DNA from: an uncultured bacterium
Lineage (GTDB): Bacteria; Fidelibacterota; UBA2242
NCBI GenBank assembly: GCA_964605705.1
Contig: CAZSDW010000002.1
Location: forward strand, 64,145-128,144
Length of the DNA: 64,000 nt
Direction: 5' to 3'
In this document: positions 1-26,504 of the stretch, one piece after another
How positions within the stretch are numbered: position 1 is the first letter of the stretch
Layout of the letters: each line of letters begins with the position of its first letter
The notes under the pieces: generated by a model
Seen by the model: only the letters and a program-made list of their open reading frames with translations
Databases searched by the model: none
What the model was told of the DNA's origin: nothing
Translations under genes and position numbers: made by a program

Positions 1-545
1 CAGCAACAGGTACTGATCCTTAAATTCCGATACGTCGATTTCAAAAATTCGATAATACCATTTCTGGTCAACTACCTTTTTAATCTCAAATTGAAGTTCT
101 TTAATCAAAACTGAATGTTCCGGTGATTTAATCCGGATGCGGATAGTGCCGATCTCGATTGGAAAGCGATGGGCATCCTTGATCAGAAACAGAACCGGAA
201 TTGTCCCGGTCTCGGTCCGGTAGGGTAAATCAAAAAGGATTTCCGGTTGATTTTTAAAAAGAATGCCTTTAAAAAATGGCAGACGGTAGTGCATCTCTGC
301 ATATAGAATAACCGGGAGTAGCCCTGCCAGCGATTCCAGTATATTTTTTAAAAAATATGATCCGTCAAATCCATGTATAACAATCATGATTAAAAGATAA
401 GTGAAAAATTCTGTTATCCCCAAGTAATAAAAGAATGATTTAATGCCGCAATCATTACTGCTCAGCAGGGAAAATTTGGTTGACACTAATAACGAAGGGC
501 GCTAAATTCAACCTCACAATTATGTGATTTTTGAAGGGAGAATGT

Positions 546-1109
546 TTGGCATCGACAGCAGATATCCGTAATGGATTGGTGATAAATTTAAACGGCGAAT
601 TGGTAAAAATTATCGAGTTTCAACACGTGAAGATGGCACGCGGCGGGGCTCGAATTCGCACAAAATTCAAAAATATCCGAACCGGTCAGGTTGTCGATAA
701 TACCTTCCGGTCCGGTGAAAAAATTGATATTGTCCGGCTTGAAGCGATAGAAATGCAGTATTTATATCACGACGGCAATAATTATATTTTTATGAATAAC
801 GAAACTTACGATCAGATTCCAATCAGTGATGAATTGTTTAAGGATGCTTCACTGTATGTTAAGGAAAATGAAAACGTCAAGGTCCTGTTTCACGGGAACG
901 AAGCCGTGGATATTGAGATCCCTCCCCATGTCAATCTGGAGATTGTCGAGACCGAACCCGGTATGAAAGGCGATACCGTGACCGGGGCGAGTAAAGCCGC
1001 GGTCATGGAGACTGGCGTCACTATTCCGGTGCCGCTGTTCCTGAATGTCGGTGACAAAGTGCGAATCGACACACGCACCGGATCCTATGTTGAGCGGATA
1101 AAAGAATAA
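546..1109 (+). CDS. efp: Elongation factor P. Start likely TTG at 546 after SD AAGGGAG, giving MASTADIRNG...; the ORF track starts at 531.
   Basis: Full-length similarity to EF-P (KOW-like N-terminus, FMNNETYDQ, LEIVETEPGMKGDT motifs). The loop-tip residue at position 32 is Arg (KMARGGA), not Lys. Confidence 0.9.
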   Translation: MASTADIRNGLVINLNGELVKIIEFQHVKMARGGARIRTKFKNIRTGQVVDNTFRSGEKIDIVRLEAIEMQYLYHDGNNYIFMNNETYDQIPISDELFKDASLYVKENENVKVLFHGNEAVDIEIPPHVNLEIVETEPGMKGDTVTGASKAAVMETGVTIPVPLFLNVGDKVRIDTRTGSYVERIKE

Positions 1110-1121
1110 TAAGAGAAATAC

Positions 1122-1598
1122 ATGAAATCAAACAAGATACTCGATCTGGTGAAAATCCTTGAATCTCATGATATCAGTGAGATTGAGGTCTCGCGCTGGG
1201 GACAGAAAATCAGAATTACCAAAAATATAAACAATAGTTCTGATGTCATTCCGGTTCCCCAGGCGCCTCAAATAAAAAACGTCAATCCTCAGTTTGTCGA
1301 AGTTGCCGGAATTTCCGAGGAACATATCGAGGGAAATGGAGAATCCCTCCCCGGCGGAGTCGAGATCAAATCGCCGCTGGTCGGGACATTTTACCAGGCG
1401 CCGGCGCCGGACGCAGAGCCGTATGTGAAAATTGGAGATCACATTACCGTGGGACAGCCGCTGTGTATTATAGAGGCAATGAAGATCATGAATGTGATCG
1501 AATCGGAAGTTATCGGGAAGCTGGTTAAAATCCAGGCAAGTAATGCCCAGTCGATTGAATATAATCAGACTTTGTTTATTGTTGAGCCTGCTAGTTAA
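1122..1598 (+). CDS. accB: Biotin carboxyl carrier protein of acetyl-CoA carboxylase
   Basis: C-terminal biotinyl domain with EAMKIMN motif; directly upstream of accC. Confidence 0.9.
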   Translation: MKSNKILDLVKILESHDISEIEVSRWGQKIRITKNINNSSDVIPVPQAPQIKNVNPQFVEVAGISEEHIEGNGESLPGGVEIKSPLVGTFYQAPAPDAEPYVKIGDHITVGQPLCIIEAMKIMNVIESEVIGKLVKIQASNAQSIEYNQTLFIVEPAS

Positions 1599-1627
1599 TG
1601 TCTAATTTGTAAGAATACAGTACCATC

Positions 1628-2971
1628 TTGATTGAAAAAATTCTAATTGCCAACAGGGGCGAAATTGCATTAAGAATTATCCGGGCATGTAAAGAGCTCG
1701 GTATTTCCACCGTTGCGGTATATTCGACGGCTGATTCATTATCGTTGCATGTCCGCTTTGCTGATGAGGCGGTCTGTATCGGACCGGCAAATAGTCAAAG
1801 CAGCTACCTGAAACAATCCCAGATTATCAGTGCTGCCGAGGTCACCAATTCCGATGCCATTCATCCGGGTTATGGATTTCTGGCAGAAAATCCGGATTTT
1901 GCCCAGATGTGCCTCGATAATGAGATCCTGTTTATTGGACCATCACCCAATGTGATCAAACGTATGGGAGATAAAGCCGAAGCCCGGGCAACTATGCTGA
2001 AAGCCGGGGTTCCGGTTATTCCCGGCAGTGAAGATGTCATTGGGGATTTAAAAACAGCCATTAAGGTCGCCAGTGATTTGGGTTATCCGGTGATGCTGAA
2101 AGCAGTAGCCGGTGGCGGTGGGCGCGGCATGCGAATTGTGCGTGAACCCGCCCAGCTGGAAGAGGCTTTTTCCTCTGCCCGTGAGGAAGCCAGGACTGCC
2201 TTCGGGAATCCGGCGATGTATATGGAAAAACTCATCGAAAAAGCGCGCCATATTGAAGTTCAGATTATGGGTGATAATTTTGGCGATGTCGCCTATCTGG
2301 GTGAACGGGAGTGTTCGATTCAGCGACGGCATCAGAAACTTATTGAAGAATCACCATCCCCGGCGGTAAATGAGGAGCTGCGGGAAAAATTCGGGAAAAT
2401 CGCGGTCCGGGCAGCCAAAGCGGTCAAATATTCCGGGGCTGGTACGGTTGAATTTTTGCTGGATAAGCACCGTAATATTTACTTTATGGAAATGAACACC
2501 CGGATTCAGGTCGAGCATCCCGTGACGGAAATGGTTACCGGTTTTGATTTATTGAAAGAGCAGATAAACTTGGCAAATAACCTGCGTCTGCCGAAGTGGT
2601 TGAAAAAATTCAAGCTGCGGGGTCATGCCATCGAATGTCGGATCAATGCCGAAGATCCCTATAAAAATTTCATGCCCTCACCGGGCAAAATTCAGGCATT
2701 TCATGTCCCCGGTGGACCGGGAACCCGGATGGATACCCATGTCTATGCCGGTTATGAAATTCCGTCGAATTATGATTCTCTCCTGGGAAAATTGATTACC
2801 CATGGTAAAAACCGGGAGGAAGCGATTGCCCGAATGGAACGGGCGTTGGAGGAGACAATTATCGAAGGAGTCTCAACTTCGATACCCTTTCATCAGGCGA
2901 TTTTGAAAGACCCGGCATTTCGGGCGGGTGATATTCATATTGATTTCTTGAAAGATTTTAAATTTCAATAA
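1628..2971 (+). CDS. accC: Biotin carboxylase subunit of acetyl-CoA carboxylase (TTG start)
   Basis: ATP-grasp biotin carboxylase hallmarks ([35 protein letters not shown]). Confidence 0.93.
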
Positions 2972-2996
2972 TTTATTATATCGAGGAGGAGCGTTG

Positions 2997-3371
2997 ATGA
3001 ACGTACCTGGAAATTTAAAGTACACAAATGATCATGAATGGGCACTGGTAGCAGACGGGATTGCCACGGTCGGAATTACCGAATATGCTGCCGGTGAATT
3101 GGGAGATGTCGTCTATGTTGAACTGCCTGGTGTTGGTGATACTGCCACCAAAGGCGATTCAATCGGGACCATTGAAGCGGTGAAGACAGTTGCCGATCTT
3201 TACAGCCCGGTATCCGGTGAAATTATTGAGGTAAATGAGGCACTGAACGACCGTTCCGAATTGATCAACAGCGATCCTTTTGGCGATGGCTGGATTGTTA
3301 AAATAAAACTTTCTGATCTAAGTGAACTTGATGATTTGTTAAGCCCGGAAAATTATAAGAAACTCGTATAA
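2997..3371 (+). CDS. gcvH: Glycine cleavage system H protein
   Basis: LKYTNDHEW N-terminus and lipoyl-lysine region EAVKTV. Confidence 0.9.
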   Translation: MNVPGNLKYTNDHEWALVADGIATVGITEYAAGELGDVVYVELPGVGDTATKGDSIGTIEAVKTVADLYSPVSGEIIEVNEALNDRSELINSDPFGDGWIVKIKLSDLSELDDLLSPENYKKLV

Positions 3372-3376
3372 AATAA

Positions 3377-4717
3377 ATGCATTATATTCCTAATACCGAG
3401 GAGATCGAAAGAGAACTCCTGAAAGCAATCGGCGTTGAACGCTTTGAAGATTTAATTCAGAATATCCCGGATAATTTTCTGAAGAAATGCCGTATTAACT
3501 TGCCGGTGCCATTGTCTGAACTGGAAGCCAGTCAGAAACTGGGCGAAATGGCGGGGCGGAATGGTCATACGGACAATCTGGTGTCATTTCTGGGCGGCGG
3601 CAGCTACGACCATTTCATTCCGGCGGCGGTGGATTTTCTGATCAGCCGATCGGAATTTTATACTGCTTACACCCCTTATCAACCGGAAGTAGCCCAGGGA
3701 ACATTGCAGTCGATTTATGAATACCAGTCGCTGATCTGTTATCTCATGGATATGGAAGTTGCCAATGCCTCGATGTACGATGGGGCGACCGCCCTGGCAG
3801 AAGCGGCAATCATGGCGGTCAATAAGACCCGCCGGAACAAGATCCTTGTCTCGCCGCTGATTAATGCAAATTCTCTGAAAGTGCTGGAAACCTACCTCTT
3901 GACCAAAGAGATAACGCTTGAATATCTGCCGGATGCAGATGGTCTGACCAATTTTTCGAATTTGGATGTCCTTCTGGATGATCAGACAGCAGGGCTGCTG
4001 GTGCAATCGCCCAACTTTTTCGGGTGTATCGAGAACCTGAATGGAATTGCCGGAAAACTGCACGAAAATAATTCCTTACTGATTGTCTCGGTCAATCCGA
4101 TCGCTGTGGCACTTTTAAAAACGCCGGGTGAACTGGATGCCGATATCGCCGTGGCAGAGGGACAGGCGTTGGGAATCCATCAGTCTTTTGGTGGTCCCTA
4201 CCTGGGGATTTTTACCGCAAAAAAATCACTCATTCGAAATATGCCGGGCAGAATAGTCGGAGAAACAGTTGACCTCGATGGCAAACGGGGGTATGTCCTG
4301 GTACTTCAGACCCGGGAGCAGCATATCCGTCGTGAAAAAGCCACTTCAAATATTTGTACAAATCAGGGTTTAATGGCACTGGCAGCCACTATTTATCTGT
4401 CTTTACTGGGTAAACAGGGCTTGAAACAGGTTGCTAAACTTTGTTTGAGAAATGCTCATGATTTGGCAGAAAAAATTTCGGCATTACCAAATTTTTCACT
4501 AACTTTTCCCACATCACCGTTTTTCAATGAATTTGTCGTTGATACACCGGTGCCGGCAAATGAAATAATCGAATCTGCATTGAAGCAGCAGATATTTGCA
4601 GGAATTGATTTGGCAAGATTCAATTCTAAGTGGGGAAAAAGGATGTTGATTGCGGTCACAGAAAAACGCAGTCAGCAAGAAATAGATGACTTTATCAAAT
4701 TTTTAATTAAATTTTGA
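3377..4717 (+). CDS. gcvPA: Glycine dehydrogenase (decarboxylating) subunit 1
   Basis: 446 aa with conserved TAYTPYQPEVAQG and GGPY regions of the P-protein N-terminal subunit. No gcvPB follows. Confidence 0.88.
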   Translation: MHYIPNTEEIERELLKAIGVERFEDLIQNIPDNFLKKCRINLPVPLSELEASQKLGEMAGRNGHTDNLVSFLGGGSYDHFIPAAVDFLISRSEFYTAYTPYQPEVAQGTLQSIYEYQSLICYLMDMEVANASMYDGATALAEAAIMAVNKTRRNKILVSPLINANSLKVLETYLLTKEITLEYLPDADGLTNFSNLDVLLDDQTAGLLVQSPNFFGCIENLNGIAGKLHENNSLLIVSVNPIAVALLKTPGELDADIAVAEGQALGIHQSFGGPYLGIFTAKKSLIRNMPGRIVGETVDLDGKRGYVLVLQTREQHIRREKATSNICTNQGLMALAATIYLSLLGKQGLKQVAKLCLRNAHDLAEKISALPNFSLTFPTSPFFNEFVVDTPVPANEIIESALKQQIFAGIDLARFNSKWGKRMLIAVTEKRSQQEIDDFIKFLIKF

Positions 4718-4721
4718 GCGT

Positions 4722-5474
4722 ATGAAAATTGTCGATAGTTTAAGTGCCATTGCACAAAGAAGGGGCGGTGCCTATTTTGTTCTGATCGATCCGGATACCC
4801 GGAAAGGTGCGGAATTAAAAGATTTTGTCCGGGAAATCTGTCATCAGGGTGCTGATGCAATTCTGGTTGGCGGCAGCCTGATTATCGATATGGATTTTCA
4901 GAATTCCATGAAAATTGTCAAAGAAAACAGTAGCCTGCCCATTATCATATTCCCGGGTTCTGTACAGCAACTGTCCTATGACGCCGACGCTATCCTTTAT
5001 CTGTCACTGATTAGTGGACGCAATCCCAACTACCTGTTCGGTGAACATGTAATCGCCGCGCCTTTCATCAAAAAGATGGGAATTGAACCGATATCGACGG
5101 GTTATATGCTGTTTGAATCGGGTAGTATGACGACGGCTGAGTTTATGAGCAATACGAAACCGTTACCAATCAACAAACCCGAAATTGCGATGGCGCATGC
5201 TTTGGCTGCTCAGTATTTTGGGATGAGTGTTATATATATGGAAGCGGGCAGTGGTGCCAAGCATTCGATTCCCAGCCCGGTCGTCAAAGCGGTCTCCGGC
5301 TATGTTGATATTCCTGTAATCGTAGGGGGCGGTATTCGAACTCCTGAAGACGCCCGCTCAAAGATAGAAGCGGGAGCAAGCTTCATCGTCACTGGCAATA
5401 TCTACGATAATTCCGAAAATATCAAACTCATCAGTGAATTCTCCCGGGCAATTCATATCAAAGAACAATCTTAA
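4722..5474 (+). CDS. Geranylgeranylglyceryl/heptaprenylglyceryl phosphate synthase family protein (PcrB/GGGPS, glycerol-1-phosphate prenyltransferase)
   Basis: TIM-barrel family blocks match B. subtilis PcrB from memory: VLIDPD, DAILVGGS, YMEAGSG, IVGGGIRTPEDA, FIVTGNIYDN. Confidence 0.75.
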   Translation: MKIVDSLSAIAQRRGGAYFVLIDPDTRKGAELKDFVREICHQGADAILVGGSLIIDMDFQNSMKIVKENSSLPIIIFPGSVQQLSYDADAILYLSLISGRNPNYLFGEHVIAAPFIKKMGIEPISTGYMLFESGSMTTAEFMSNTKPLPINKPEIAMAHALAAQYFGMSVIYMEAGSGAKHSIPSPVVKAVSGYVDIPVIVGGGIRTPEDARSKIEAGASFIVTGNIYDNSENIKLISEFSRAIHIKEQS

Positions 5475-6073
5475 TGAATGTTATCACTGGCAAAGATGCT
5501 TTATTGTTGGATATAAAGCAACAACTTCGCGAGAGTGCCGAAGTCAAGGAAATGCTGGCATCGGATTATACTGACATTATCTGGCAAGGTTCGGAAATAC
5601 TGGTCAATGCGATTCGAAACGGATCGCAAATCTTGTTTTGTGGAAATGGCGGCAGCGCTGCAGATGCTCAGCATCTTGTTGCCGAATTGGTGTCCCGGTT
5701 GCGTTTTGAGCGTCGGGCAATTCCGGCAATGGCATTGACCGTAAATACCTCGATCCTGACCGCGATTGCCAATGATTATGACCATTCCAGTGTCTTTGTC
5801 CGACAGTTGGAAGCCTTTGCCCATAAGGGTGATGTGCTGGTTGGAATCAGTACCAGTGGTAATTCTGAAAATGTGATCAAAGCGCTTCAATATGCCAAGG
5901 ATCATAAAATAACGACAATCGCATTGACCGGTGGAAGCGGCGGGAAAATGGCAGAACTGGCTGATTTCAGTATCATCGTTCCTTCGGAAAATGTCCAGCG
6001 GATTCAGGAAGCCCATATAACCATTGGTCATATTTTGTGTGATATTCTGGAACAATCGGTCATTAACCAGTAA
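5474..6073 (+). CDS. SIS-domain protein, probable D-sedoheptulose-7-phosphate isomerase (GmhA/DiaA family)
   Basis: 199 aa; single SIS domain with CGNGGSAADAQH and GISTSGNS motifs. Confidence 0.75.
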   Translation: MNVITGKDALLLDIKQQLRESAEVKEMLASDYTDIIWQGSEILVNAIRNGSQILFCGNGGSAADAQHLVAELVSRLRFERRAIPAMALTVNTSILTAIANDYDHSSVFVRQLEAFAHKGDVLVGISTSGNSENVIKALQYAKDHKITTIALTGGSGGKMAELADFSIIVPSENVQRIQEAHITIGHILCDILEQSVINQ

Positions 6074-6091
6074 CGATCCCCGATACCGTGA

Positions 6092-6985
6092 ATGCAACAT
6101 TTAGTCCGAGATTTTATAAATTACCTGAAAATAGAACGCAATCTGTCCGGAAATACTATCGATGCGTATCGTAATGATCTGGAGCGCTACTGCCAGTTTC
6201 TGCAAGAGCATGATATCAAGCGTCCCGATCAGATAGATATCAAAATTATACAAAATTTTATCAGTACCCTGGCGGAAGTTGGATTGGTAGCCAGCAGCCT
6301 GTCCCGGAACTTTTCGTCAATTCGCTCCTTCCATAGGTTTATGGTTGGAGAAAATATTATTAAGACGAATCCGACAGAGCTTATCCAATCACCGCGATTA
6401 CCGGCGAGATTGCCGAAAATCCTGGACCTGCATGAAATCGAAGCGATTATGGAAGCAATAGATACCGATACCAACAAGGGTATTCGGGACCGTGCTATTA
6501 TCGAAACACTGTATTCGACGGGAATCCGTATTTCTGAACTGATCTCATTACCCATGCAGAGTATTTTTTTCCAGCATAAAGTCATCCGGGTTTTTGGCAA
6601 GGGTTCGAAAGAACGGATTGTTCCTTTTGGCGAACGGGCGCATAAATATCTGAAGAATTATATTTCCGCGGTGCGATCCCTGCTGGTGCGGGCGGGGCAA
6701 AGTGGTGATATACTGTTTTTGAATATGCGTGGTGCGCCGCTGTCCCGGATGGGTGTCTGGAAAATTATCCAGGTTTATGTAAAACTCGCCGGAATCAAAA
6801 AACAGGTCAGTCCGCATGTGTTTCGGCACTCCTTTGCGACACATTTGCTTGAAGGAGGCGCCAACCTGAGAGCGGTCCAGGAAATGTTAGGACATTCCAA
6901 TATTACGACAACCCAGATCTATACTCATCTTGACCGGGAGTACCTGATCGAGCAACATCGAACTTTTCATCCGAGGTGGCAATGA
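6092..6985 (+). CDS. Tyrosine site-specific recombinase XerC/XerD
   Basis: Phage-integrase fold with R...HxxR...Y catalytic residues (RHSFATHLLEGGANLRAVQEMLGHSNITTTQIYTHL). Confidence 0.85.
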   Translation: MQHLVRDFINYLKIERNLSGNTIDAYRNDLERYCQFLQEHDIKRPDQIDIKIIQNFISTLAEVGLVASSLSRNFSSIRSFHRFMVGENIIKTNPTELIQSPRLPARLPKILDLHEIEAIMEAIDTDTNKGIRDRAIIETLYSTGIRISELISLPMQSIFFQHKVIRVFGKGSKERIVPFGERAHKYLKNYISAVRSLLVRAGQSGDILFLNMRGAPLSRMGVWKIIQVYVKLAGIKKQVSPHVFRHSFATHLLEGGANLRAVQEMLGHSNITTTQIYTHLDREYLIEQHRTFHPRWQ

Positions 6986-7617
6986 ACCTGCAAGTCCTGA
7001 TTTTACTGGCGCCCCCAATTCTGCTGGCGTTGACCTTTCATGAATTCTCGCACGGCTGGGCAGCTTATAAATTGGGTGATCCGACTGCGAAAATGGCAGG
7101 ACGGCTGTCCATGAATCCTTTAGTTCATCTGGATCCTTTTGGGACGATCATGATTTTTCTGGTACGCTTTGGCTGGGCGAAACCGGTACCCGTCAATCCC
7201 AGCTATTTCAGACAACCCAAGCGAGACATGCTGCTGGTATCCCTGGCAGGTCCGGGCGCTAATATGCTATTGGCTTTTATCAGCGGATTACTTTTTCGGG
7301 CATTTCATGCAGGCAGTTTTAATTTTATCCCGGTAGCGGTGCTGCAGCCGCTTTATATCATGGTGAAATTCAGCCTCCAGATCAACCTGGCTCTGGCGAT
7401 TTTCAACCTCCTTCCGGTACCTCCACTGGACGGATCCAAAATTCTTTACGGACTTCTGCCGCCACAATATGAATATATTTATGAATATCTGGAACGCTAT
7501 GGTCCATTTGCATTGATGGGATTGATTCTGTTCGGCATGCTGACCGGTATTTCAATCCTTGGTGCATTTATCTATCCTTTCGTAAATTTCTTTTCGAGAC
7601 TTTTTGGAGGAGGATAA
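6976..7617 (+). CDS. Site-2 protease family (M50-like) membrane zinc metalloprotease
   Basis: HEFSH motif in first TM region, multiple TM helices, LDGSKIL motif. Confidence 0.7.
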   Translation: MAMNLQVLILLAPPILLALTFHEFSHGWAAYKLGDPTAKMAGRLSMNPLVHLDPFGTIMIFLVRFGWAKPVPVNPSYFRQPKRDMLLVSLAGPGANMLLAFISGLLFRAFHAGSFNFIPVAVLQPLYIMVKFSLQINLALAIFNLLPVPPLDGSKILYGLLPPQYEYIYEYLERYGPFALMGLILFGMLTGISILGAFIYPFVNFFSRLFGGG

Positions 7618-7799
7618 TGGTTAAATATCAAAAGCGTGGTTTTTCGATCAGGGACAAACGCGCCGAGCGGAATAATGGTAAAATTCATTTTGAACGTTTG
7701 CGTCGAATGCCCCGAAAAATGGGTCGTCCACTGTGGTGGTTGTTCGTTTTATTGGTCGTTATTGTCGTGATTCTGCTATATTTAAACGGTGTCCGCTGA
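7617..7799 (+). CDS. Small hypothetical membrane protein (60 aa; basic N-terminus plus one TM helix)
   Basis: ORF start overlaps the M50 gene stop (ATAATGG); hydrophobic C-terminal helix; no family assignable. Confidence 0.3.
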   Translation: MVKYQKRGFSIRDKRAERNNGKIHFERLRRMPRKMGRPLWWLFVLLVVIVVILLYLNGVR

Positions 7800-7820
7800 T
7801 CCAGATAATGAGTTGATTTA

Positions 7821-9662
7821 ATGTCGAAGATAAAAATTCTTTCCGATCAACTGACAAATAAGATCGCCGCCGGCGAGGTCGTCCAGCGCCCGGCTTCACT
7901 GGTGAAGGAGCTGGTGGAAAACAGCCTGGATGCCGGTGCGAGTGACATTACAGTCATTGTCAGAAGTGGCGGAAAGACCTTGTGCCAGGTCGTTGATAAT
8001 GGTGAAGGCATGGGCAAGGACGATCTCCTGCTCGCATTCGAACGCTATGCCACCAGTAAAATTGCTACGACCGAAGATTTGATGGCAATCCGAACTCTTG
8101 GTTTCCGGGGTGAAGCACTGGCGAGTATTGCCGCGGTTGCGGTTGTTTATGCAATCAGCACTGAAAAAGGTGCTGAAAGCGGTCACGAATTAAGAATCGA
8201 AGGTGGCAGCTTCCGTGAAATAAAACCGGTCGCGGCGACGCAGGGTACGAATATATGCGTTAAAAACCTGTTTTTCAATGTGCCGGCGCGGCGGAAATTT
8301 CTGAAAAGCACCGAAGTGGAATTTCGTCATATTGTCGATGTGATTCGTAAATTTTCGATGATTCATCCGCAAGTTCAATTCAATTTAATCCATAATGATA
8401 AAGAAGTATTTCGTCTCAGATCGGAGTTGTTGGCTGATCGAATTGTCAACCTCTATTCCAGTGAATACAAAGAGAATTTGATAAAAATCGATGAGACCGT
8501 AACCGGGATGAAACTTTCCGGATATATCGGGAACCTGAACCTTGTCAGAGCCCGCCGTGGTGACCAGTATTTTTATGTCAATCAACGCTTCGTTACCGAT
8601 CGCCTGATGAATTATGCGATCAGCTCAGCTTATTCGAATCTCATCAGCCGTGGTGAATATCCCTTTTACTGTCTGCATCTGCGGTTGGATCCGGGCGAAG
8701 TGGATGTCAATGTGCACCCAGCCAAAATGGAGGTGAAATTCCGTGAGCAGAACTCGGTTTATCGCTTCCTGGAAGATACGGTCAAAGCGGGATTGAAAGA
8801 AATAACCGAGGTCATCCCGGATCTTGCCCGTTTCGCACCGGAACATTATTATAAACCGATGCCGGCTCCCCAGCCCCGGGATATTCAAAAAAATATCGAA
8901 GAGGATTCTGCTCTCACACCACTTGATCAGATTGATGGTTCCGAAGGAAATTCAATCGAAAAGTCCACTATTTCACCATTATCACAAACTGAGATGCCAT
9001 TACATTTTTCACGCCGGAGGGCTAGTGAACAATGGACAGAACGAGCAAAACGCTTTGTGGAACAGGGCATTCCGGAACCCCAAACGGAATACCATTCGGA
9101 TGTACCCCTCTATCAGGTTCATAACAAATATATTATTACCCAGATTAAAAGCGGTTTGGTGATTATTGACCAGCACGTTGCCCATGAGCGGATTTTATAT
9201 GACACCGCCATGAAAGCGATGTCGGAACAATCCTGGAAAGCGCAACAACTTCTGTTTCCCCAAATTGTTGAACTGTCTGTGACGGATTTTTCATTGCTGT
9301 TGGAGGTTCTGCCATTCCTCGAGAAAATCGGTTTCAGTATTCGTGAATTTGGTAAAAACACGGTTGCCCTTGAAGCGGTTCCTGCCGGAATGACCTGGGG
9401 AAATGAATCGACCATTATCAAAGAAATTCTCGATCACTATCATGAATATGGAACCAAGGATACCAGTATTCAGTCCAGAGTGGCAGCCTCATATTCCTGC
9501 AAAGCAGCCATTAAATCCGGTGACCGGTTAACCAATGAGGAGATGCATAATCTGGTGGATAATCTCTTTGCCACCCAAAATCCATATTATTGTCCCCACG
9601 GGCGCCCGATTATCATTAACCTGACGCTGAAAGAACTGGATAAACGGTTTGAAAGGGTATAG
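7821..9662 (+). CDS. mutL: DNA mismatch repair protein MutL
   Basis: GHKL ATPase N-terminus (IAAGEVVQRPASLVKELVENSLDAGA) and C-terminal dimerisation domain. Confidence 0.93.
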   Translation: MSKIKILSDQLTNKIAAGEVVQRPASLVKELVENSLDAGASDITVIVRSGGKTLCQVVDNGEGMGKDDLLLAFERYATSKIATTEDLMAIRTLGFRGEALASIAAVAVVYAISTEKGAESGHELRIEGGSFREIKPVAATQGTNICVKNLFFNVPARRKFLKSTEVEFRHIVDVIRKFSMIHPQVQFNLIHNDKEVFRLRSELLADRIVNLYSSEYKENLIKIDETVTGMKLSGYIGNLNLVRARRGDQYFYVNQRFVTDRLMNYAISSAYSNLISRGEYPFYCLHLRLDPGEVDVNVHPAKMEVKFREQNSVYRFLEDTVKAGLKEITEVIPDLARFAPEHYYKPMPAPQPRDIQKNIEEDSALTPLDQIDGSEGNSIEKSTISPLSQTEMPLHFSRRRASEQWTERAKRFVEQGIPEPQTEYHSDVPLYQVHNKYIITQIKSGLVIIDQHVAHERILYDTAMKAMSEQSWKAQQLLFPQIVELSVTDFSLLLEVLPFLEKIGFSIREFGKNTVALEAVPAGMTWGNESTIIKEILDHYHEYGTKDTSIQSRVAASYSCKAAIKSGDRLTNEEMHNLVDNLFATQNPYYCPHGRPIIINLTLKELDKRFERV

Positions 9663-9665
9663 CGA

Positions 9666-10625
9666 TTGGTCCATACCCCTGAAAAGCATCTTATTAAATC
9701 CTCACAAGTAATTCCCATGATTGTCGGTCCTACTGCCGTCGGTAAAACAGCTACCGCTATCGAATTGGCAAAACGGCTGGACGGTGAAATAATTTCCATC
9801 GATTCACGGCAGGTTTATAAAGGCATGGATATTGGTACGGCTAAAGCAACCCTGCGCCAGCAAAAGGAGATCCCCCATCATCTGATCGACATTCTTGAGC
9901 CCACCGAACAGATCAGCGCCGGTGCGTATCGTGAATTAGCCTTGAAAGCGGTCGATGAGATTCAAGCACGTGGTAGATTGCCGATTTTTGTCGGTGGCAG
10001 CGGATTGTATGTCAAGGTCATGGTTCAGGGGATTTTTCAGGAAAGTGTCACCGATGATCGAGTACGGGAAAAAATCCAGTCCGAGCTGACGACAATAGGT
10101 GCCGCGGCTCTCTATAATCGCCTGCTGGATATTGATCCGGAACTGGCAGTTAAAACCCATTTGAATGACACAAAGCGTATTACCAGAGCCCTGGAAATCT
10201 TTGAGATAACCGGTAAAGCACCCAGCGAACATTATCAGGATCAAGAAGCCGAACCACCCTTTCCACACAAGATATTTGTTCTGACGACAGATCGTGAAAG
10301 ACTGTACGAGAGTATCAATGAACGCGTTGATGAAATGATTGCCGATGGACTGGTCGAAGAGGTTGTAAACCTGCTCGATTCCGGACTGCGGGAAAACCTG
10401 GATTCCTTACTGACGCTGGGATATCAGGAAGTTGTCGCTTATCTGGATGGCGATTGCACTCATGCCGAGATGGTGGAAAATATCAAGCGTAATACGCGAC
10501 GCTATGCCAAGCGGCAGTTGACCTGGTTTCGCAATCAGCTGGATGCGATCTGGATACATGTACCGGAAAACCGATCAATCCCGGAAGTAGTAGAGCAGAT
10601 TACTGATCATTTACGGTTAAAATAA
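9666..10625 (+). CDS. miaA: tRNA dimethylallyltransferase (TTG at 9666; an alternative start is ATG at 9711)
   Basis: P-loop GPTAVGKT followed by SIDSRQVYKGMDIGTAK; classic mutL-miaA linkage. Confidence 0.9.
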   Translation: MVHTPEKHLIKSSQVIPMIVGPTAVGKTATAIELAKRLDGEIISIDSRQVYKGMDIGTAKATLRQQKEIPHHLIDILEPTEQISAGAYRELALKAVDEIQARGRLPIFVGGSGLYVKVMVQGIFQESVTDDRVREKIQSELTTIGAAALYNRLLDIDPELAVKTHLNDTKRITRALEIFEITGKAPSEHYQDQEAEPPFPHKIFVLTTDRERLYESINERVDEMIADGLVEEVVNLLDSGLRENLDSLLTLGYQEVVAYLDGDCTHAEMVENIKRNTRRYAKRQLTWFRNQLDAIWIHVPENRSIPEVVEQITDHLRLK

Positions 10626-10638
10626 ATCGATCTAAATA

Positions 10639-12087
10639 ATGTTATTCAACTCTTTTCAGTTCCTGATATTTTTCCCGATTGTCGTTGTATTCTATTTTGC
10701 GATTCCCTATAAATATCGCTGGATACTGCTCCTGCTCGCCAGTTATTATTTTTATATGTGCTGGAAGGCTGAGTACCTGTTTTTAATTATTGCTTCCACA
10801 TTGGTCGATTATTCTGCCGGTCTGAAAATGGGCAAAATCCCGGATAAACGGGGACGCCGGATGTACCTGATTCTGAGCCTGATTGCCAACCTTGGGCTGC
10901 TTTTCACGTTCAAATATTTCAATTTCTTCAATGCCTCATTCCAGCAATTATTCAGGCATTTTAATATCATGGTTTCCATACCGACGCTGAAAGTCCTGCT
11001 GCCGGTTGGGATCAGTTTTTACACGTTTCAAACCTTGAGTTATACGATTGATGTCTATCGCGGGAATCGGGAACCTGAAAAGCACCTGGGGATTTTCGCG
11101 CTGTATGTTTCATTTTTTCCGCAACTGGTTGCCGGACCGATTGAACGCTCGACGCGGCTGCTGCCCCAGTTTTTTGAAAAAATGGCATTCGATTCTCAAC
11201 GAGTGAAAGACGGACTACTGCTGATGACTTGGGGCTTTTTCAAAAAAATCGTCATTGCCGACTGGTTAGCGGTTTTTGTCAACCAGGTTTACAATCACCC
11301 GACAAATTATCCGGGATTAGCAGTGATCATTGCGACCTATTTCTTTGCATTTCAGATATATTGTGATTTTTCCGGTTATTCGGATATTGCCATTGGGGCG
11401 GCACAGGTGATGGGCTATAGCCTGATGCTCAATTTTAATCGCCCCTATTTTTCCAAATCCATTTCCGAATTCTGGAAGCGTTGGCACATTTCGCTCTCCA
11501 GCTGGTTCAGGGACTATCTCTATATTCCTCTGGGAGGTAATCGGGTTGTCCGTTACCGGATGTATCTGAATATTTTTATTGTGTTTCTGGTCAGTGGTTT
11601 ATGGCATGGTGCCAACTGGACCTTTGTCGTTTGGGGCGCGTTGCATGGATTTTACCTGTTGACGTCAATCTGGACAAGCTCGCTCCGGGACAGGATTTCC
11701 GATATAACCGGCATCAGTCGATTCCCCGTGTTTCGGCGGTATTTTAAAGTATTTATCACTTTTCACCTGGTGATCTTTTCGTGGATTTTTTTCCGGGCGA
11801 ATTCCCTTTCCGAGGCATTTTTTATCATTACAAACCTGTTTTCATCTTTTGACCTTGCTGCGATTTTGTCCATTGAGGGGTTTACCTTGCAGCATCTGGT
11901 CTTGTCGATGATTTCGATCCTGATTTTACTGGGAGTGGAACTATTTCAGCGGAATCACGATATCCGGGTCTGGTTGGGAAGTCGTCCAAAACTTATCCGC
12001 TGGCTGGTCTATTATGGCATCATAATGTTTATTTTAATATTTGGCGCTTACGATAATTCCAACGCGTTTATCTATTTTCAATTTTAA
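10639..12087 (+). CDS. MBOAT family membrane O-acyltransferase (AlgI/DltB/PatA-like)
   Basis: 482 aa polytopic membrane protein with the MBOAT region including the WHISLSSWFRDYLYIPLGG conserved His. Confidence 0.85.
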   Translation: MLFNSFQFLIFFPIVVVFYFAIPYKYRWILLLLASYYFYMCWKAEYLFLIIASTLVDYSAGLKMGKIPDKRGRRMYLILSLIANLGLLFTFKYFNFFNASFQQLFRHFNIMVSIPTLKVLLPVGISFYTFQTLSYTIDVYRGNREPEKHLGIFALYVSFFPQLVAGPIERSTRLLPQFFEKMAFDSQRVKDGLLLMTWGFFKKIVIADWLAVFVNQVYNHPTNYPGLAVIIATYFFAFQIYCDFSGYSDIAIGAAQVMGYSLMLNFNRPYFSKSISEFWKRWHISLSSWFRDYLYIPLGGNRVVRYRMYLNIFIVFLVSGLWHGANWTFVVWGALHGFYLLTSIWTSSLRDRISDITGISRFPVFRRYFKVFITFHLVIFSWIFFRANSLSEAFFIITNLFSSFDLAAILSIEGFTLQHLVLSMISILILLGVELFQRNHDIRVWLGSRPKLIRWLVYYGIIMFILIFGAYDNSNAFIYFQF

Positions 12088-12092
12088 ATTCT

Positions 12093-13019
12093 ATGGTCTG
12101 GAAACTCACAAGAAAAATACTTCTGTTGATGGTGCTGATTTTCGGTACAATTCTGCTTATTCTGTGGATTCCAATCAACCAACCAAACCATTATTTGCTG
12201 GCATCCATAGATAAGGAGAAACGGCTCGCCGAGACGGAATCACCCAAAATTGTTATCATTGGTGGTTCGAATACGGTTTTTAATGTCAACAGCCAGATAA
12301 TCCAGAAATCAACCGGATTCTCAGTAATCAACATGGGACTGCATGCGGGATTGGGATTAAAATATTCACTGAATGAAATCGAGAATTATATCCAATCAAA
12401 TGATGTCGTCATCATCATGCCGGAGTATGACCAGTTTTTCAGTAATCTCTTTTTTGGTGGCAGAATTGTCACCCGTTTGGTTTCACTGCGTCATGATGCT
12501 GTCAAATATATCAAGCACTATCGTCAATGGCTGGGATTGATCAAAAGCGCGGGTCTGGAAGTTCGTAGTAAATTGGTGGCTTTACTCGGGTATCAAAGTG
12601 ATGATGAAACCTACAGCCGCGATGCCTTTAATGATTATGGCGATATAAGGACTGATCTGATTGGTTTTGAATCCAATCCGGAATTGGCAAAAACTGATTA
12701 TGAAATTCGGTCAATGGACGAGTTAAGTACCGCGGCAATCAGTGAATTGAATAAATTTAATGATAGAATAATGCAAATAGGCGCTCGTGTGTACTTAGCA
12801 TTTTCGGCTGTTCCACGGGAGAAATACGGATCTTGCAGCTCACAAATAACCGGGTTATACGATTATTTACAGACTCACCTGGATTTTCCCATATTATTCG
12901 AGCCCGAAGAAACTTTATTCAGTTTAAACGATTTTTTTGATACATTATATCACTTAAATGACAACGGCAGACAACGATACACTGAAATACTTGTCAATTA
13001 TTTATTGAACTCACTTTAA
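12093..13019 (+). CDS. Membrane-anchored DltD/AlgX/PatB-like (SGNH-like) partner protein of the MBOAT acyltransferase
   Basis: N-terminal TM anchor, IVIIGGSNTVF block, C-terminal YHLNDNG (D-x-x-H-like), immediately downstream of the MBOAT gene. Family assignment is tentative. Confidence 0.45.
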   Translation: MVWKLTRKILLLMVLIFGTILLILWIPINQPNHYLLASIDKEKRLAETESPKIVIIGGSNTVFNVNSQIIQKSTGFSVINMGLHAGLGLKYSLNEIENYIQSNDVVIIMPEYDQFFSNLFFGGRIVTRLVSLRHDAVKYIKHYRQWLGLIKSAGLEVRSKLVALLGYQSDDETYSRDAFNDYGDIRTDLIGFESNPELAKTDYEIRSMDELSTAAISELNKFNDRIMQIGARVYLAFSAVPREKYGSCSSQITGLYDYLQTHLDFPILFEPEETLFSLNDFFDTLYHLNDNGRQRYTEILVNYLLNSL

Positions 13020-18190: not shown

Positions 18191-18643
18191 TTATTTTCTT
18201 AATTTCAGTCTGTTGATTTCCTGCTGGATTTCGGGGATTACTTCCTGATTATGGATGACTTTTTTCCCGTCATGTTTGATTGAGAACAGGTAAAAAACTT
18301 TGCCACCAAATTCTTGGGTGAATTTTTTGTGGGTTTCTTTTTGAAATCCTTTTTCTTTGTAGATTTGGGAAATATGTGTGACTCCACTGACCGGTTTGAT
18401 TTGTAATCCAATGTACTTGTCGAAGATTTTTATAAAGAAATCAACGTTGTACAATCGATCCCAGTTGTCCGGCGCCGGTTCGATTTTAACTTCGAGTAAT
18501 TTTTGTAATTGTCCGTATATTGTATTTATTTCAGTAGTATAGCCGTCAAATGTTCGATCAATAACTAACTGGTATATGTAATTGATGCAATCATCTTCGG
18601 TGATGTTTTCCACTTCAGCAGCGATGACTTCTGTAATTTTCAC
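18191..18643 (-). CDS. Hypothetical 150-aa protein, candidate cognate restriction endonuclease or specificity partner of the adjacent methyltransferase (GTG start)
   Basis: Co-directional and 180 bp downstream of the MTase in an AT-rich island. A possible degenerate PD-...QxK arrangement (NVD...LQIK) is only suggestive. Confidence 0.35.
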   Translation of the reverse strand: MKITEVIAAEVENITEDDCINYIYQLVIDRTFDGYTTEINTIYGQLQKLLEVKIEPAPDNWDRLYNVDFFIKIFDKYIGLQIKPVSGVTHISQIYKEKGFQKETHKKFTQEFGGKVFYLFSIKHDGKKVIHNQEVIPEIQQEINRLKLRK

Positions 18644-18822
18644 ATAGAGTTTGCGTCCGAGTTCTTCGATATGGTCACGTGTTCTGACGTTTTTAAATTA
18701 TATGTTCGCCATGTATCAATATCTCTTTGGGAGAACATTTTCGGATTTCTTCGGAAACGGCGCCGACATTCCGCTTAAAATTCAATTGAAAGCGGTTCAT
18801 TGCCGAGTTAAGGATCCATTCT

Positions 18823-20124
18823 TTAGCCATGAGCTGCTCGCAGATAGTCATGAAATTTGTTCATATATTTGTAATCATAGTGGTCGTCCACATCCGTCAG
18901 ACCATTTTTTAACAAGTGGGCGTTGATAAAGGTTTTATTTTTCAGATAAAGGTAACAAAGTAAATTATTTTCTTCGTCGTGTTTTATTTTGTCGAATTTT
19001 AAAAATACTTTCTGACCATTTAATTTTTCTTTAAGATAATTGACTGCCTTACCGTTTTGTGATTTATCTTCTTTTATACCAAGTAATCGGACGGTTAATC
19101 CATTATTTAATAATATTTTTTCAGGAGAAATAACCTCTTTTACGGTATAATAATCTTCCCGTTCATGGTTACTATTCGTGTCAATCCGTGAACCGAAATT
19201 CAATTTTTTAGGATCAATTTTTTTATCCAGATCATGGGGGTCTTTAAAAATGTAGGTAAGTTTTTGAATTTCTTTTTTGAAGTCGATTTTAAGATTAGAC
19301 TGTTCGAGAAAATCAAAGCTTGTTCCGAATATATCAGACTGATCCATATTTAATTTTTTCCTGATAATTGGAATAAACTCTTTGTTTATTTCATATCCAA
19401 TTGAACTTCTTCCGGTATTTAATGCTGCCAGGGAAGTAGTCCCACTACCCAGAAAAGGATCGAGGACGATATCGCCGACAAAGGAAAACATTCTCAATAA
19501 GCGCCGTGGTAATTCCTCAGGAAACATTGCTATATGTCCATCTTGTTTCGCACCTCCGAAATTCCAGTGTCCTGAAAAGTAGTTATTCCATTCCTCCTTG
19601 GTTAATCTGGATAATTCCTTATTTTCACGGCTTGGTTTTTTGGATGTTCCCAATTTTTTAAAAATTAGAATAAATTCATAATCAATTTTTAGGATTCCAT
19701 TCCTTGGAAAGGGGAAGCTGCCCATTATTGTCGCTCCGCCGCTTGTGTTGGTAGTAGTCACTTTTTGCCAGATAATAGCTCCCATATAGTCGAATCCAAT
19801 ACTTTCACAGAATTTTATAATTTCGGTTCTGATTGGAATGACTTTGTATCTACCATAGTAAATCGACCTTGCGAATTGGTCTCCAATATTGATGCAGAGT
19901 CGGCAACCATTATCTAAAACACGATAACATTCTTTCCATACAAGGTTTAAATTATTTATATAATTTTCGTAAGTATCGTTGTAACCTATTTGTCGTTTAG
20001 TACCATAGTCCTTTAATTGCCAATACGGAGGAGAAGTAATTACTAAATGTACTGATTTTTCGGGCAATTCTGCCATTTGTCGGCTATCGCCGTTGATTAT
20101 TTTATGATGGGTTTTCACGTTCAA
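18823..20124 (-). CDS. Beta-class DNA methyltransferase (N4-cytosine/N6-adenine type) fused to a C-terminal staphylococcal-nuclease-like OB-fold domain
   Basis: SPPY (motif IV) precedes DPFLGSGTT (motif I), the beta-class order. C-terminal ~100 aa (TVRLLGIKEDKS...VFLKFDK...LLCYLYLKNKTFINAHLLKNGL) mirrors the SNase fold pattern but lacks the DTPE/Arg catalytic residues. Confidence 0.8.
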   Translation of the reverse strand: MNVKTHHKIINGDSRQMAELPEKSVHLVITSPPYWQLKDYGTKRQIGYNDTYENYINNLNLVWKECYRVLDNGCRLCINIGDQFARSIYYGRYKVIPIRTEIIKFCESIGFDYMGAIIWQKVTTTNTSGGATIMGSFPFPRNGILKIDYEFILIFKKLGTSKKPSRENKELSRLTKEEWNNYFSGHWNFGGAKQDGHIAMFPEELPRRLLRMFSFVGDIVLDPFLGSGTTSLAALNTGRSSIGYEINKEFIPIIRKKLNMDQSDIFGTSFDFLEQSNLKIDFKKEIQKLTYIFKDPHDLDKKIDPKKLNFGSRIDTNSNHEREDYYTVKEVISPEKILLNNGLTVRLLGIKEDKSQNGKAVNYLKEKLNGQKVFLKFDKIKHDEENNLLCYLYLKNKTFINAHLLKNGLTDVDDHYDYKYMNKFHDYLRAAHG

Positions 20125-25385: not shown

Positions 25386-26504
25386 ATGAAACGGTATGAT
25401 AACATTTTTTTATTGTTCTGTTTGTTGATGATCACGGCTGGAATACTTCACGCTGAAAATTTGCAGGTCAGTTTTATCAATCTGACCCACGGCAGTCGTA
25501 TCCCGGAATGTCAAAATAAACTTATCAGACTCAACGCATCTGTCGATAGCAGCAGTATTGATAAAATTGAGGTTTATGCAAGTGGGAGTCGGGTGTTCAC
25601 AGCCCGGAGTGAACCCTGGGAAGGTGAATGGGCTAATCCGCTCTCCGGATATTACCAGGTCTGGGCAAGAGTGGAAGATGTAAACGATAATGTGGCTTTT
25701 TCCGATACTATTGGTGTTGTTGTTGGCGATTTGATTGATGGCGATCTTATCTTGAATGGTACGTTCAATTGTGCCTCCAGATATTGGAATAAACAGGATA
25801 ACGCCGGTGCATCGAGTACAATGACCAGGGTGGAAGATGCTGAAATAGCCGAAGGTGCGGCAATGTTAATAGATATCATTAATCCCGGAACGGAAGACTG
25901 GCATGTTCAACTGCTTCAGAATTTTCCAATTGATTCGGGACATATCTACGAAATCTCCTTTGTGGCTGAAACCGCCGGGAGCCGGGATATCCAATATGTT
26001 TTCCAGGAAAATACCGGTGAATACACCTTTCACAGAGGGGAGCAGGTTACATTAACCGGGAATGGCTTTTATGGGCCCTATACCTGGGAATGTAATGTTA
26101 CCGATCCGAATTGTGCGTTTCGATTTTATCTCGGTAACAGTACGGCTTATGTTTATTTTGATGATATTTCAATCATTGATCTATCCGTAGAATTTCCGGA
26201 CGAGGCATCGGCAATAAAAGCTGAAGCTATCAAAGCCGATAAATATCAACTCGGATTGAAAAACTATCCCAATCCATTCAATCCATTTACTACTATTGCC
26301 TATGAACTACCGGTTAAATCCAATGTCACCCTGGCTGTCTATGACATTACAGGTCAATTAGTTGAGACGCTAGTGAGTCGTTACCAGAATTCAGGACAGC
26401 ATTTTATCCAATGGGATGGCACCGATTACAGCTCCGGTGTTTATTTATATCAGATTGAGACAGCTGATTTTCGTCAGGTCAAAAAGATGATTTTGATGAA
26501 ATAG
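25386..26504 (+). CDS. Secreted protein with CBM4/9-like carbohydrate-binding region and T9SS C-terminal sorting domain
   Basis: Signal peptide; C-terminal ~80 aa (NYPNPFNPFTTIAY...VYDITGQLVETL...WDGTDYSSGVYLYQIE) matches the type-A T9SS sorting-domain pattern. Confidence 0.7.
   Translation: MKRYDNIFLLFCLLMITAGILHAENLQVSFINLTHGSRIPECQNKLIRLNASVDSSSIDKIEVYASGSRVFTARSEPWEGEWANPLSGYYQVWARVEDVNDNVAFSDTIGVVVGDLIDGDLILNGTFNCASRYWNKQDNAGASSTMTRVEDAEIAEGAAMLIDIINPGTEDWHVQLLQNFPIDSGHIYEISFVAETAGSRDIQYVFQENTGEYTFHRGEQVTLTGNGFYGPYTWECNVTDPNCAFRFYLGNSTAYVYFDDISIIDLSVEFPDEASAIKAEAIKADKYQLGLKNYPNPFNPFTTIAYELPVKSNVTLAVYDITGQLVETLVSRYQNSGQHFIQWDGTDYSSGVYLYQIETADFRQVKKMILMK

Follow-up and report, generated by a model that had tools for sequence, protein, structure and literature searches.

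Contig CAZSDW010000002.1 of an uncultured bacterium carries, within the 64,000-nucleotide stretch analysed here (positions 64,145 to 128,144, hereafter the window), an open reading frame (ORF) whose translation resembles the prenyltransferases geranylgeranylglyceryl phosphate synthase (GGGPS) and PcrB, which raises the question of which enzyme it encodes and what becomes of its product. Bacterial GGGPS is central to the debate over the "lipid divide", which concerns archaeal-type ether lipids in bacteria and early membranes. The ORF occupies positions 4722-5474 of the forward strand and runs from ATG to TAA over 250 codons. A sequence-only reading of the window had described a 250-aa protein with five PcrB/GGGPS blocks, and we recovered exactly those coordinates and all five motifs (VLIDPDT, GADAILVGGS, IYMEAGSGA, VGGGIRTPEDA and IVTGNIYDN). 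Based on family models, solved relatives, residue conservation, structure prediction with Foldseek comparison and selection analysis, the gene most likely specifies a working group II GGGPS, a cytoplasmic enzyme with a (beta-alpha)8 barrel, in a Marinimicrobia (SAR406) bacterium, which by analogy with characterised enzymes would make geranylgeranylglyceryl phosphate (GGGP).

The translation matched the Pfam family PcrB (PF01884) over residues 14-234 of 250 (E=6.5e-45, 153.8 bits, cut-off 23.9) and exceeded the cut-offs of three NCBIfam models, which are the GGGPS model NF003198 (284 bits, cut-off 247), the GGGP equivalog TIGR01769 (208 bits, cut-off 162) and TIGR01768 (188 bits, cut-off 113). 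When the single sequence was compared with proteins in the PDB, the leading matches were the enzymes of Methanothermobacter thermautotrophicus (4mm1, 1e-51) and Flavobacterium johnsoniae (4jej, 5e-48), followed by two Thermoplasma enzymes; the Archaeoglobus group I GGGPS and the PcrB proteins of Bacillus and Geobacillus matched weakly, at about 1e-7 to 1e-9. Expressed in bits, structures of group II scored 145-179 and those of group I scored 33-40. A profile of 56 relatives placed 4jej best among the structures (240 bits), with 4mm1 at 220 bits and PcrB at 34-36 bits. An AlphaFold2 model built from the same 56-relative alignment reached a pLDDT of 90.8 and a pTM of 0.90, and Foldseek again returned 4jej as the best match (TM-scores of 0.89/0.92, root-mean-square deviation of 1.7 A, 38% identity), together with the M. 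thermautotrophicus chains. Ranks 1-27 of the Foldseek output were exclusively group II GGGPS chains (TMq 0.77-0.91), and the next matches were group I GGGPS, PcrB and MoeO5 (TM 0.7-0.8, 16-23% identity), with group I GGGPS and PcrB specifically at TM 0.72-0.77 and 18-23% identity. Judged by sequence and by model, the product of 4722-5474 is a group II GGGPS, the kind known from most archaea and from Bacteroidetes and other FCB bacteria, and not a Firmicute-type PcrB.

Two other identities were weighed against this assignment. The protein could be a different phosphate-binding TIM barrel (ThiE, ThiG, HisA/F or similar) that merely resembles GGGPS, and weak matches to His_biosynth, DHO_dh and ThiG (20-36 bits, residues ~150-244) point that way; however, these matches are confined to the C-terminal phosphate-binding loops that such barrels share and lie far under the NCBIfam family cut-offs, which leaves this identity with next to no probability. 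A ThiE-, ThiG-, HisA- or HisF-like barrel was rejected because the GGGPS models pass their cut-offs over the full length and the best structural matches are GGGPS. PF01884, the three NCBIfam cut-offs and Foldseek thus agree with the family proposed by the sequence-only reading, and, since the best sequence and structural matches are group II enzymes and the curated cut-offs are passed, the ThiE-like clustering that would have spoken against it was not seen. The other identity is that of a heptaprenylglyceryl phosphate synthase of the PcrB type (group Ib), whose C35 mono-ether is later dephosphorylated and acetylated, as in Bacillus. PF01884 and the overall fold are common to both types, and the NCBI product names of the relatives are ambiguous ([quoted passage not shown]). 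Yet the heptaprenylglyceryl phosphate synthase/PcrB equivalog NF003197 was not passed (38.6 bits against a cut-off of 260), the PcrB structures reach 18-23% identity and TM 0.72-0.77 compared with 38% and about 0.9 for group II, and the position that limits chain length pairs with residues of two C20 enzymes (I90 in F. johnsoniae, V86 in M. thermautotrophicus). We therefore regard a PcrB-type enzyme as very unlikely, and of the two names offered by the sequence-only reading, GGGPS stands, now specified as group II, whereas PcrB falls on the NF003197 score. The PcrB of B. subtilis (1viz, 3vzx; group Ib) does share the Pfam family, the TIM-barrel fold and the sn-glycerol-1-phosphate (G1P) acceptor with the window protein, but it differs in its 18-19% identity, a TM-score of about 0.75, a C35 donor, another limiter helix and a dimeric state.

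We also examined the residues on which GGGPS activity depends, taking the functional positions from a review (PMC9385802) and from Kropp et al. (PMC7888582) and mapping them by pairwise alignments to 4mm1 and 4jej. Conservation was evaluated across the 56 relatives, which share 55-88% identity. D23 aligns with the essential Mg/diphosphate aspartate (D25 in M. thermautotrophicus, D13 in A. fulgidus) and S52 aligns with S54 of M. thermautotrophicus; both are invariant (56/56). The Tyr/Tyr/Glu triad, which functions in G1P stereoselection and catalysis and for which positions 134, 178 and 180 have been given (PMC9385802), corresponds to Y128, Y172 and E174, which align without gaps to those positions of 4jej and are likewise invariant in all 56. 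The phosphate-binding loops beta-alpha-6, -7 and -8 are represented by G176-S177-G178, G202-G204 and T224-G225-N226, and of these G176-S177-G178, G202-G203-G204, G225 and N226 do not vary in any of the 56 relatives. The check proposed in the sequence-only reading, which was whether G1P-binding residues are missing when the protein is modelled, thus found both the catalytic and the G1P-binding residues retained. L84 occupies the chain-length limiter position in helix alpha-3', as the counterpart of I90 (F. johnsoniae) and V86 (M. thermautotrophicus), and the relatives have Leu (28), Ile (15) or Val (13) there. A small aliphatic residue such as L84 would fit a C20 donor, which we offer as a soft prediction.

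The oligomeric state can be predicted in a similar way. Hexameric members are distinguished by an anchor residue in the ring interface that is aromatic (W, Y, F or H), the anchor W141 of M. thermautotrophicus is required for hexamer formation, and the dimeric enzymes of Flavobacteriales and Thermoplasmatales have Arg at that position (PMC7888582). F141 of the window protein aligns with W141, and the position is Phe in 49 and Tyr in 7 of the 56 relatives. Because the anchor is aromatic rather than the Arg of the dimers, the window GGGPS is probably a hexamer. One loop position appeared to deviate from its group: a Thr is reported to be conserved in group II at the position of A. fulgidus N216 in the beta-alpha-8 loop (PMC9385802), whereas the window has N226 (codon 5397-5399). 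Among 163 sampled group II relatives, this position is Asn in 95 and Thr in 49, which indicates that the Thr rule is partial rather than group-defining, and we rejected N226 as a group I-like peculiarity because Asn is common among group II relatives. Finally, the ratio of nonsynonymous to synonymous substitution rates (dN/dS) was 0.04-0.06 against three orthologues, with dS saturated, and the GGGPS gene is under strong purifying selection.

Comparison with the two best-matching enzymes places these features in context. The F. johnsoniae GGGPS (4jej, bacterial group IIb) is the best structural and profile match, aligns without gaps at 38% identity, has the same Asp, Tyr/Tyr/Glu and phosphate-loop residues and an aliphatic limiter (I90, compared with L84 here), and also comes from the FCB (Fibrobacteres-Chlorobi-Bacteroidetes) group. 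In contrast to 4jej, the window protein has a Phe anchor (Tyr in some relatives) that predicts a hexamer, where the Flavobacteriales dimers have Arg, and an Asn instead of the F. johnsoniae Thr after the beta-alpha-8 Gly. The M. thermautotrophicus GGGPS (4mm1, archaeal group IIa, hexamer; 179 bits, 38% identity) aligns its D25/S54, W141 anchor and V86 limiter with D23/S52, F141 and L84, and both anchors are aromatic. Unlike the window protein, 4mm1 comes from an archaeal host with a complete pathway of G1P dehydrogenase (G1PDH), GGGPS plus the synthase of digeranylgeranylglyceryl phosphate (DGGGPS), and a two-residue indel precedes the anchor.

From the assayed and solved Methanothermobacter and Flavobacterium enzymes, which are the basis on which substrates, chain length and oligomeric state are assigned here by homology, a mechanism can be proposed. 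Mg2+ bound at D23, with D25 and S52 nearby, would help to ionise geranylgeranyl diphosphate (GGPP), and the loops G176-S177-G178, G202-G204 and T224-G225-N226 would bind G1P. Y128, Y172 and E174 would orient and polarise the C3 hydroxyl of G1P, and this hydroxyl would attack C1 of the allylic cation. The expected product of GGPP and G1P is the ether lipid precursor GGGP. Consistent with this proposal, GGGPS enzymes of the FCB group from Bacteroidetes and Cloacimonetes are active with GGPP and G1P (PMC7852524; PMC7888582).

Several observations weigh against the assignment of this activity or limit what follows from it. The enzyme activities shown so far are those of relatives outside the Marinimicrobia. 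The prediction of a C20 donor is soft because the limiter residue of group II is poorly defined (PMC9385802). G1PDH is reported to be absent in FCB phyla except Fibrobacteres and Cloacimonetes (PMC6431249), so the in vivo acceptor could be G1P or glycerol-3-phosphate (G3P). We scanned all window ORFs of at least 150 aa with Pfam and inspected those left unassigned, and among them we found no UbiA-type DGGGPS in the 64 kb, no G1PDH (EgsA/AraM), no polyprenyl (GGPP) synthase and no geranylgeranyl reductase (GGR). Nine related loci, inspected over 10 kb to either side, likewise contained no DGGGPS, G1PDH, polyprenyl synthase or GGR. In contrast, a UbiA-like gene does lie near GGGPS in two archaeal loci, L010 and L011, and in the Poribacteria-type loci described below.

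The identification of a group II GGGPS is consistent with previous reports. GGGPS and a DGGGPS-like gene have already been reported for the Marinimicrobia phylum (Coleman et al., 2019; PMC6431249), and the supplement of that study lists both proteins for one Marinimicrobia metagenome-assembled genome (MAG). In E. coli, the GGGPS and the DGGGPS of Cloacimonetes are both functional, and mixed membranes have been proposed for the FCB group (Villanueva et al., 2021; PMC7852524); the activity of Bacteroidetes GGGPS was shown earlier (PMC7852524, PMC7888582). The tie that the sequence-only reading drew to the published hypothesis of FCB ether lipids therefore holds (PMC6431249, PMC7852524). Because GGGPS was already reported for the phylum and activity was already shown for the FCB group, the occurrence of GGGPS in Marinimicrobia is a correct but ordinary finding. 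The window adds one intact, strongly conserved copy in SAR406, an abundant ocean clade. In this lineage GGGPS is not clustered with DGGGPS, which is consistent with published surveys and leaves them unchanged.

We next consider a neighbour that may bear on the role of GGGP. Directly downstream of the GGGPS gene, at 5474-6073 on the same strand, lies a gene for a 199-aa GmhA-type sugar-phosphate isomerase of the SIS_2 family, and the GGGPS stop codon overlaps its start (TAATG, 5472-5476). The best PDB match of the isomerase is GmhA of B. pseudomallei (8e-48), followed by DiaA (1e-40). It scored 203.2 bits against the gmhA equivalog TIGR00441, slightly under the cut-off of 209.45, and 213 bits against NF010546 (cut-off 276). 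Compared with solved GmhA proteins (2xbl, 1x92, 1tk9), it is about half identical by eye, at the same E=8e-48, but it is fixed beside GGGPS rather than beside other heptose-pathway genes, and it falls slightly under the equivalog cut-off.

The pairing extends well beyond the window. We fetched 80 metagenome loci with a 14-sequence alignment, mainly of non-Marinimicrobia bacterial GGGPS, pooled them with the other loci and clustered the GGGPS sequences at 70% identity, which gave 57 clusters, 44 of which could be assessed for the downstream neighbour; the locus sample is biased to relatives of the Ignavibacteria query. The isomerase gene lies immediately 3' of GGGPS in 24 of the 44 clusters, with a gap of 0-140 nt, and one gene further in 3-4 of the 44, where a CpsB-type phosphatase or a transposase stands between; it is absent beside GGGPS in the remaining 16-17. 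The pair was observed among loci L001-L009, L016-L073 and L085. In Ignavibacteriaceae-type loci, a SIS_2 gene again follows GGGPS directly although both flanks differ. Upstream neighbours of GGGPS include gcvPA, gcvH, alaS, tex, parA, a DUF1015 gene and a thioredoxin-like gene, and downstream neighbours include xerD, a DUF192 gene, an FAD oxidoreductase, an NAD-epimerase, a Wzy_C O-antigen-ligase-like gene and a WbaP-like sugar transferase. For 40 complete pairs, the pairwise identities of GGGPS and of the isomerase correlate (r=0.76, Mantel p about 0.001). Among the 40 partner proteins, H67, E71, Q178 and H186 and a Ser/Thr-rich phosphate loop are at least 95% conserved, and these four residues correspond to the sites in GmhA that presumably serve metal binding and catalysis.

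A neighbour-joining (NJ) tree, drawn with no bootstrap, separated a Bacteroidetes-type branch, which includes 4jej and lacks the partner, from another bacterial branch that has it almost throughout, with a few losses. The neighbours of GGGPS in the Bacteroidetes-type branch are a phosphopantetheinyl transferase (PPTase) or ribonucleotide reductase, and in this respect too the F. johnsoniae enzyme differs from that of the window, since Bacteroidetes-type loci have no GmhA-type partner and often have a PPTase. An Sfp-like 4'-phosphopantetheinyl transferase is encoded directly upstream of GGGPS in the Bacteroidetes-type loci L083, L084 and L091, and in the 446-aa protein P0162 the N-terminal 220 residues, which are fused to GGGPS, resemble an Sfp-like phosphopantetheinyl transferase by eye. 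No paper naming geranylgeranylglyceryl together with phosphoheptose isomerase came up in a literature search, and Villanueva et al. (2021; PMC7852524) make no mention of an isomerase, so the conserved pairing of GGGPS with a GmhA-type protein is apparently unreported.

What the pair signifies is much less certain than its occurrence. Synteny alone is no proof of a common function, since alaS is also a widely conserved neighbour; given this caveat, the sample bias and the possibility of a single ancestral arrangement, we judge it rather unlikely that the pair forms a functional module. The stronger proposal, in which GGGPS and the GmhA-type isomerase make up an ancestral and selectively maintained two-gene module of the non-Bacteroidetes branch of bacterial group II GGGPS (Marinimicrobia, Ignavibacteria-like loci and several further lineages) and mark an undescribed pathway, is one that we consider unlikely. 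If it were true, the prenylglyceryl phosphate might serve a heptose-containing glycoconjugate of the envelope as lipid anchor or carrier, or the isomerase might provide the real in vivo acceptor for the prenyltransferase; in either version, the GGGPS genes of the FCB group would have to be read differently as evidence of "mixed archaeal/bacterial membranes". The pair and its frequent envelope-glycan neighbours are in any event a testable clue to what bacterial GGGP does physiologically, and they advise caution in taking GGGPS alone as a sign of a mixed membrane.

Several possibilities were weighed for what becomes of the product. By analogy with the proposal for Cloacimonetes, GGGP may be passed to a DGGGPS-like UbiA protein encoded elsewhere and built into archaeal-like diether phospholipids, which we put forward tentatively and at less than even confidence. 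Like the window organism, Cloacimonetes belong to the FCB group, have a GGGPS of the same clade and fall under the same "mixed membrane" hypothesis; G1PDH, not found among the window ORFs scanned, is missing there too. They differ in that their GGGPS and DGGGPS genes are co-localised and both work in E. coli (PMC7852524), whereas here there is no DGGGPS within 64 kb and the gene is known from sequence. We searched for DGGGPS with UbiA seeds from the archaeal loci and from the bacterial locus L054, and the latter found only Poribacteria-type proteins among the best 120 matches listed, which is uninformative on Marinimicrobia. GGGP may instead end up as a minor mono-ether lipid or as an envelope glycolipid anchor; this outcome, suggested by the conserved GmhA-type partner and by the glycan genes nearby in other lineages, is possible but doubtful. 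The enzyme would then be a real prenyltransferase that acts alongside the presumably co-transcribed GmhA-type isomerase, and its minor prenylglyceryl lipid would be an anchor or carrier in a pathway to envelope glycoconjugates instead of a precursor of bulk archaeal-type phospholipid; we hold this to be improbable on balance, though worth weighing. It draws on the position of the isomerase, directly 3' of GGGPS or one gene off in most of the assessable lineages as counted above, on the at least 7 different families found upstream of the pair and the equally varied genes downstream, on the NAD-epimerase, Wzy_C O-antigen-ligase-like and WbaP-like sugar transferase genes that lie downstream in several lineages, and on the CpsB phosphatase that sometimes sits inside the pair. 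It also draws on the GmhA-like residues retained by the partner and on the lack of a DGGGPS near GGGPS in the Marinimicrobia lineage. However, synteny is not function, and the unrelated alaS is likewise widely conserved upstream of GGGPS; passive retention of a single ancestral arrangement may explain the pair; the isomerase resembles a common housekeeping GmhA, about half of its aligned residues being identical to those of the B. pseudomallei enzyme; in this window the pair has neither heptose-pathway nor glycosyltransferase genes at its flanks; and a DGGGPS-like gene is reported for one Marinimicrobia MAG (PMC6431249 supplement). Lastly, the enzyme might act in the catabolic direction or in the salvage of environmental archaeal lipids instead of in biosynthesis, as Coleman et al. 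raised for FCB bacteria that lack G1PDH (PMC6431249). This is highly improbable, because the reverse reaction is without biochemical precedent, the gene sits within a housekeeping co-directional string, it is under strong purifying selection with relatives across many bacterial lineages, and the Cloacimonetes enzymes build ether lipids in E. coli (PMC7852524).

The group II GGGPS can be placed in its lineage and its gene string with some precision. An identical protein (P0001) is already present in public databases, on a 147-kb contig. Relatives that share 60-81% identity with it carry the names Candidatus Marinimicrobia or Neomarinimicrobiota, and the organism is a member of Marinimicrobia (SAR406, Fidelibacterota) in the FCB group. 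The sequence-only reading had reached the FCB group from type IX secretion system (T9SS) sorting domains, and such a domain (Por_Secre_tail, E=4e-11) is indeed present at 25386-26504, while the homologues narrow the placement to Marinimicrobia (Fidelibacterota). The family counts 1345 members at E <=1e-3 among 1.84 billion cluster representatives. Few of the relatives' clusters carry taxon labels (Ignavibacteriaceae, Emticicia, one Anaerolineae bin and one Bacillota bin), and beyond the phylum the nearest relative with a label, at 52% identity, belongs to Ignavibacteriaceae. A further NJ tree, built from 163 sequences and bootstrapped 100 times, was unresolved below the Marinimicrobia clade (support of 0-48%) and is used only descriptively.

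Upstream of GGGPS lie gcvH (2994-3371, forward strand; Pfam and NCBIfam matches) and gcvPA, which encodes glycine dehydrogenase subunit 1 (3377-4717, forward strand; NF001696, 609 bits, cut-off 364), and the gcvPA stop is 4 nt from the GGGPS start. Both are given as context, and no functional link to GGGPS is proposed. They belong to a co-directional string of efp, accB, accC, gcvH, gcvPA, GGGPS, SIS_2, a xerD-like gene, a site-2-protease-like gene, mutL, miaA and an MBOAT gene, in which names beyond the Pfam and NCBIfam scans were assigned by eye from translations. A scan of 1-12500 for sigma-70 consensus promoters and terminators found nothing above shuffled controls and is therefore uninformative on operon limits. 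The order efp-accB-accC-gcvH-gcvPA-GGGPS-SIS-xerD is retained in all nine Marinimicrobia loci (L001-L009), down to 70% GGGPS identity. In the more distant loci L061, L068, L069 and L085, GGGPS directly follows gcvH and gcvPA is absent, and L058 has the gcvPA-GGGPS synteny with the SIS gene missing. The sequence-only reading had noted that GGGPS occupies the slot where gcvPB would normally follow gcvPA. The adjacency to gcvPA is real, and gcvPB, the second glycine decarboxylase P-protein (GDC-P) gene, was not found among the window ORFs of at least 150 aa. Because the block is an old one that is conserved across the lineage, and because GGGPS follows gcvH in some loci, GGGPS is not a replacement for gcvPB.

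Other loci in the sample show further arrangements around GGGPS. A Poribacteria-type operon, present at L054:3-6738, L059:179-5895 and L080:2-6705, has the order UbiA, polysaccharide pyruvyl transferase, a 550-aa metallohydrolase, a DGGGPS-like UbiA, GGR with a ferredoxin domain and GGGPS. At L074 (134-1747), a UbiA gene lies directly upstream of GGGPS. Among bacteria, co-localisation of GGGPS and DGGGPS has been reported for Cloacimonetes only (Villanueva et al., 2021; PMC7852524), and the Poribacteria-type loci together with L074 extend it beyond that phylum. The edge of the window cuts a gene for a CehA/McbA-type (PHP-like) metallohydrolase on the reverse strand (1-387), of which the first 129 of 530 codons are present, with 100% identity to residues 1-129 of P0449. 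This protein scored 73 bits against NF038032 (cut-off 80), had no Pfam match and adjoins efp in Marinimicrobia. Homologues at 31-34% identity lie inside the Poribacteria-type operon (L054:2065-3714, L059:1195-2853 and L080:1890-3563), and those of KSB1, Calditrichia and Zhuqueibacterota are not adjacent to ether-lipid genes. A model of the metallohydrolase had a pLDDT of 90, and whole-chain Foldseek gave only uninformative multi-domain matches (TM <=0.25). We dropped the metallohydrolase as a member of the pathway, its link to GGGPS being weak, because homologues in three other phyla lie away from ether-lipid genes.

Elsewhere in the window, three further features were observed. At 18191-20124, on the reverse strand, a gene for an MjaI-like restriction endonuclease adjoins one for an N4/N6 DNA methylase with a C-terminal staphylococcal-nuclease domain. 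The ~2 kb around these genes have the lowest GC of the window (0.355, compared with about 0.43), which suggests that they form a horizontally acquired restriction-modification island. A reverse-strand gene at 60714-62918 encodes a 734-aa fusion of a class-V aminotransferase (NifS/selenocysteine-lyase-like) with AIRS/AIRS_C domains (selenophosphate-synthetase-like), which is possibly a single-chain selenium-delivery enzyme. Finally, at 10639-13019 on the forward strand, the gene for an MBOAT O-acyltransferase is paired with that for a 308-aa single-pass membrane protein that matched nothing in Pfam. At least one further Marinimicrobia locus (L007:14082-16445) retains this pair, in the same gene string as GGGPS.

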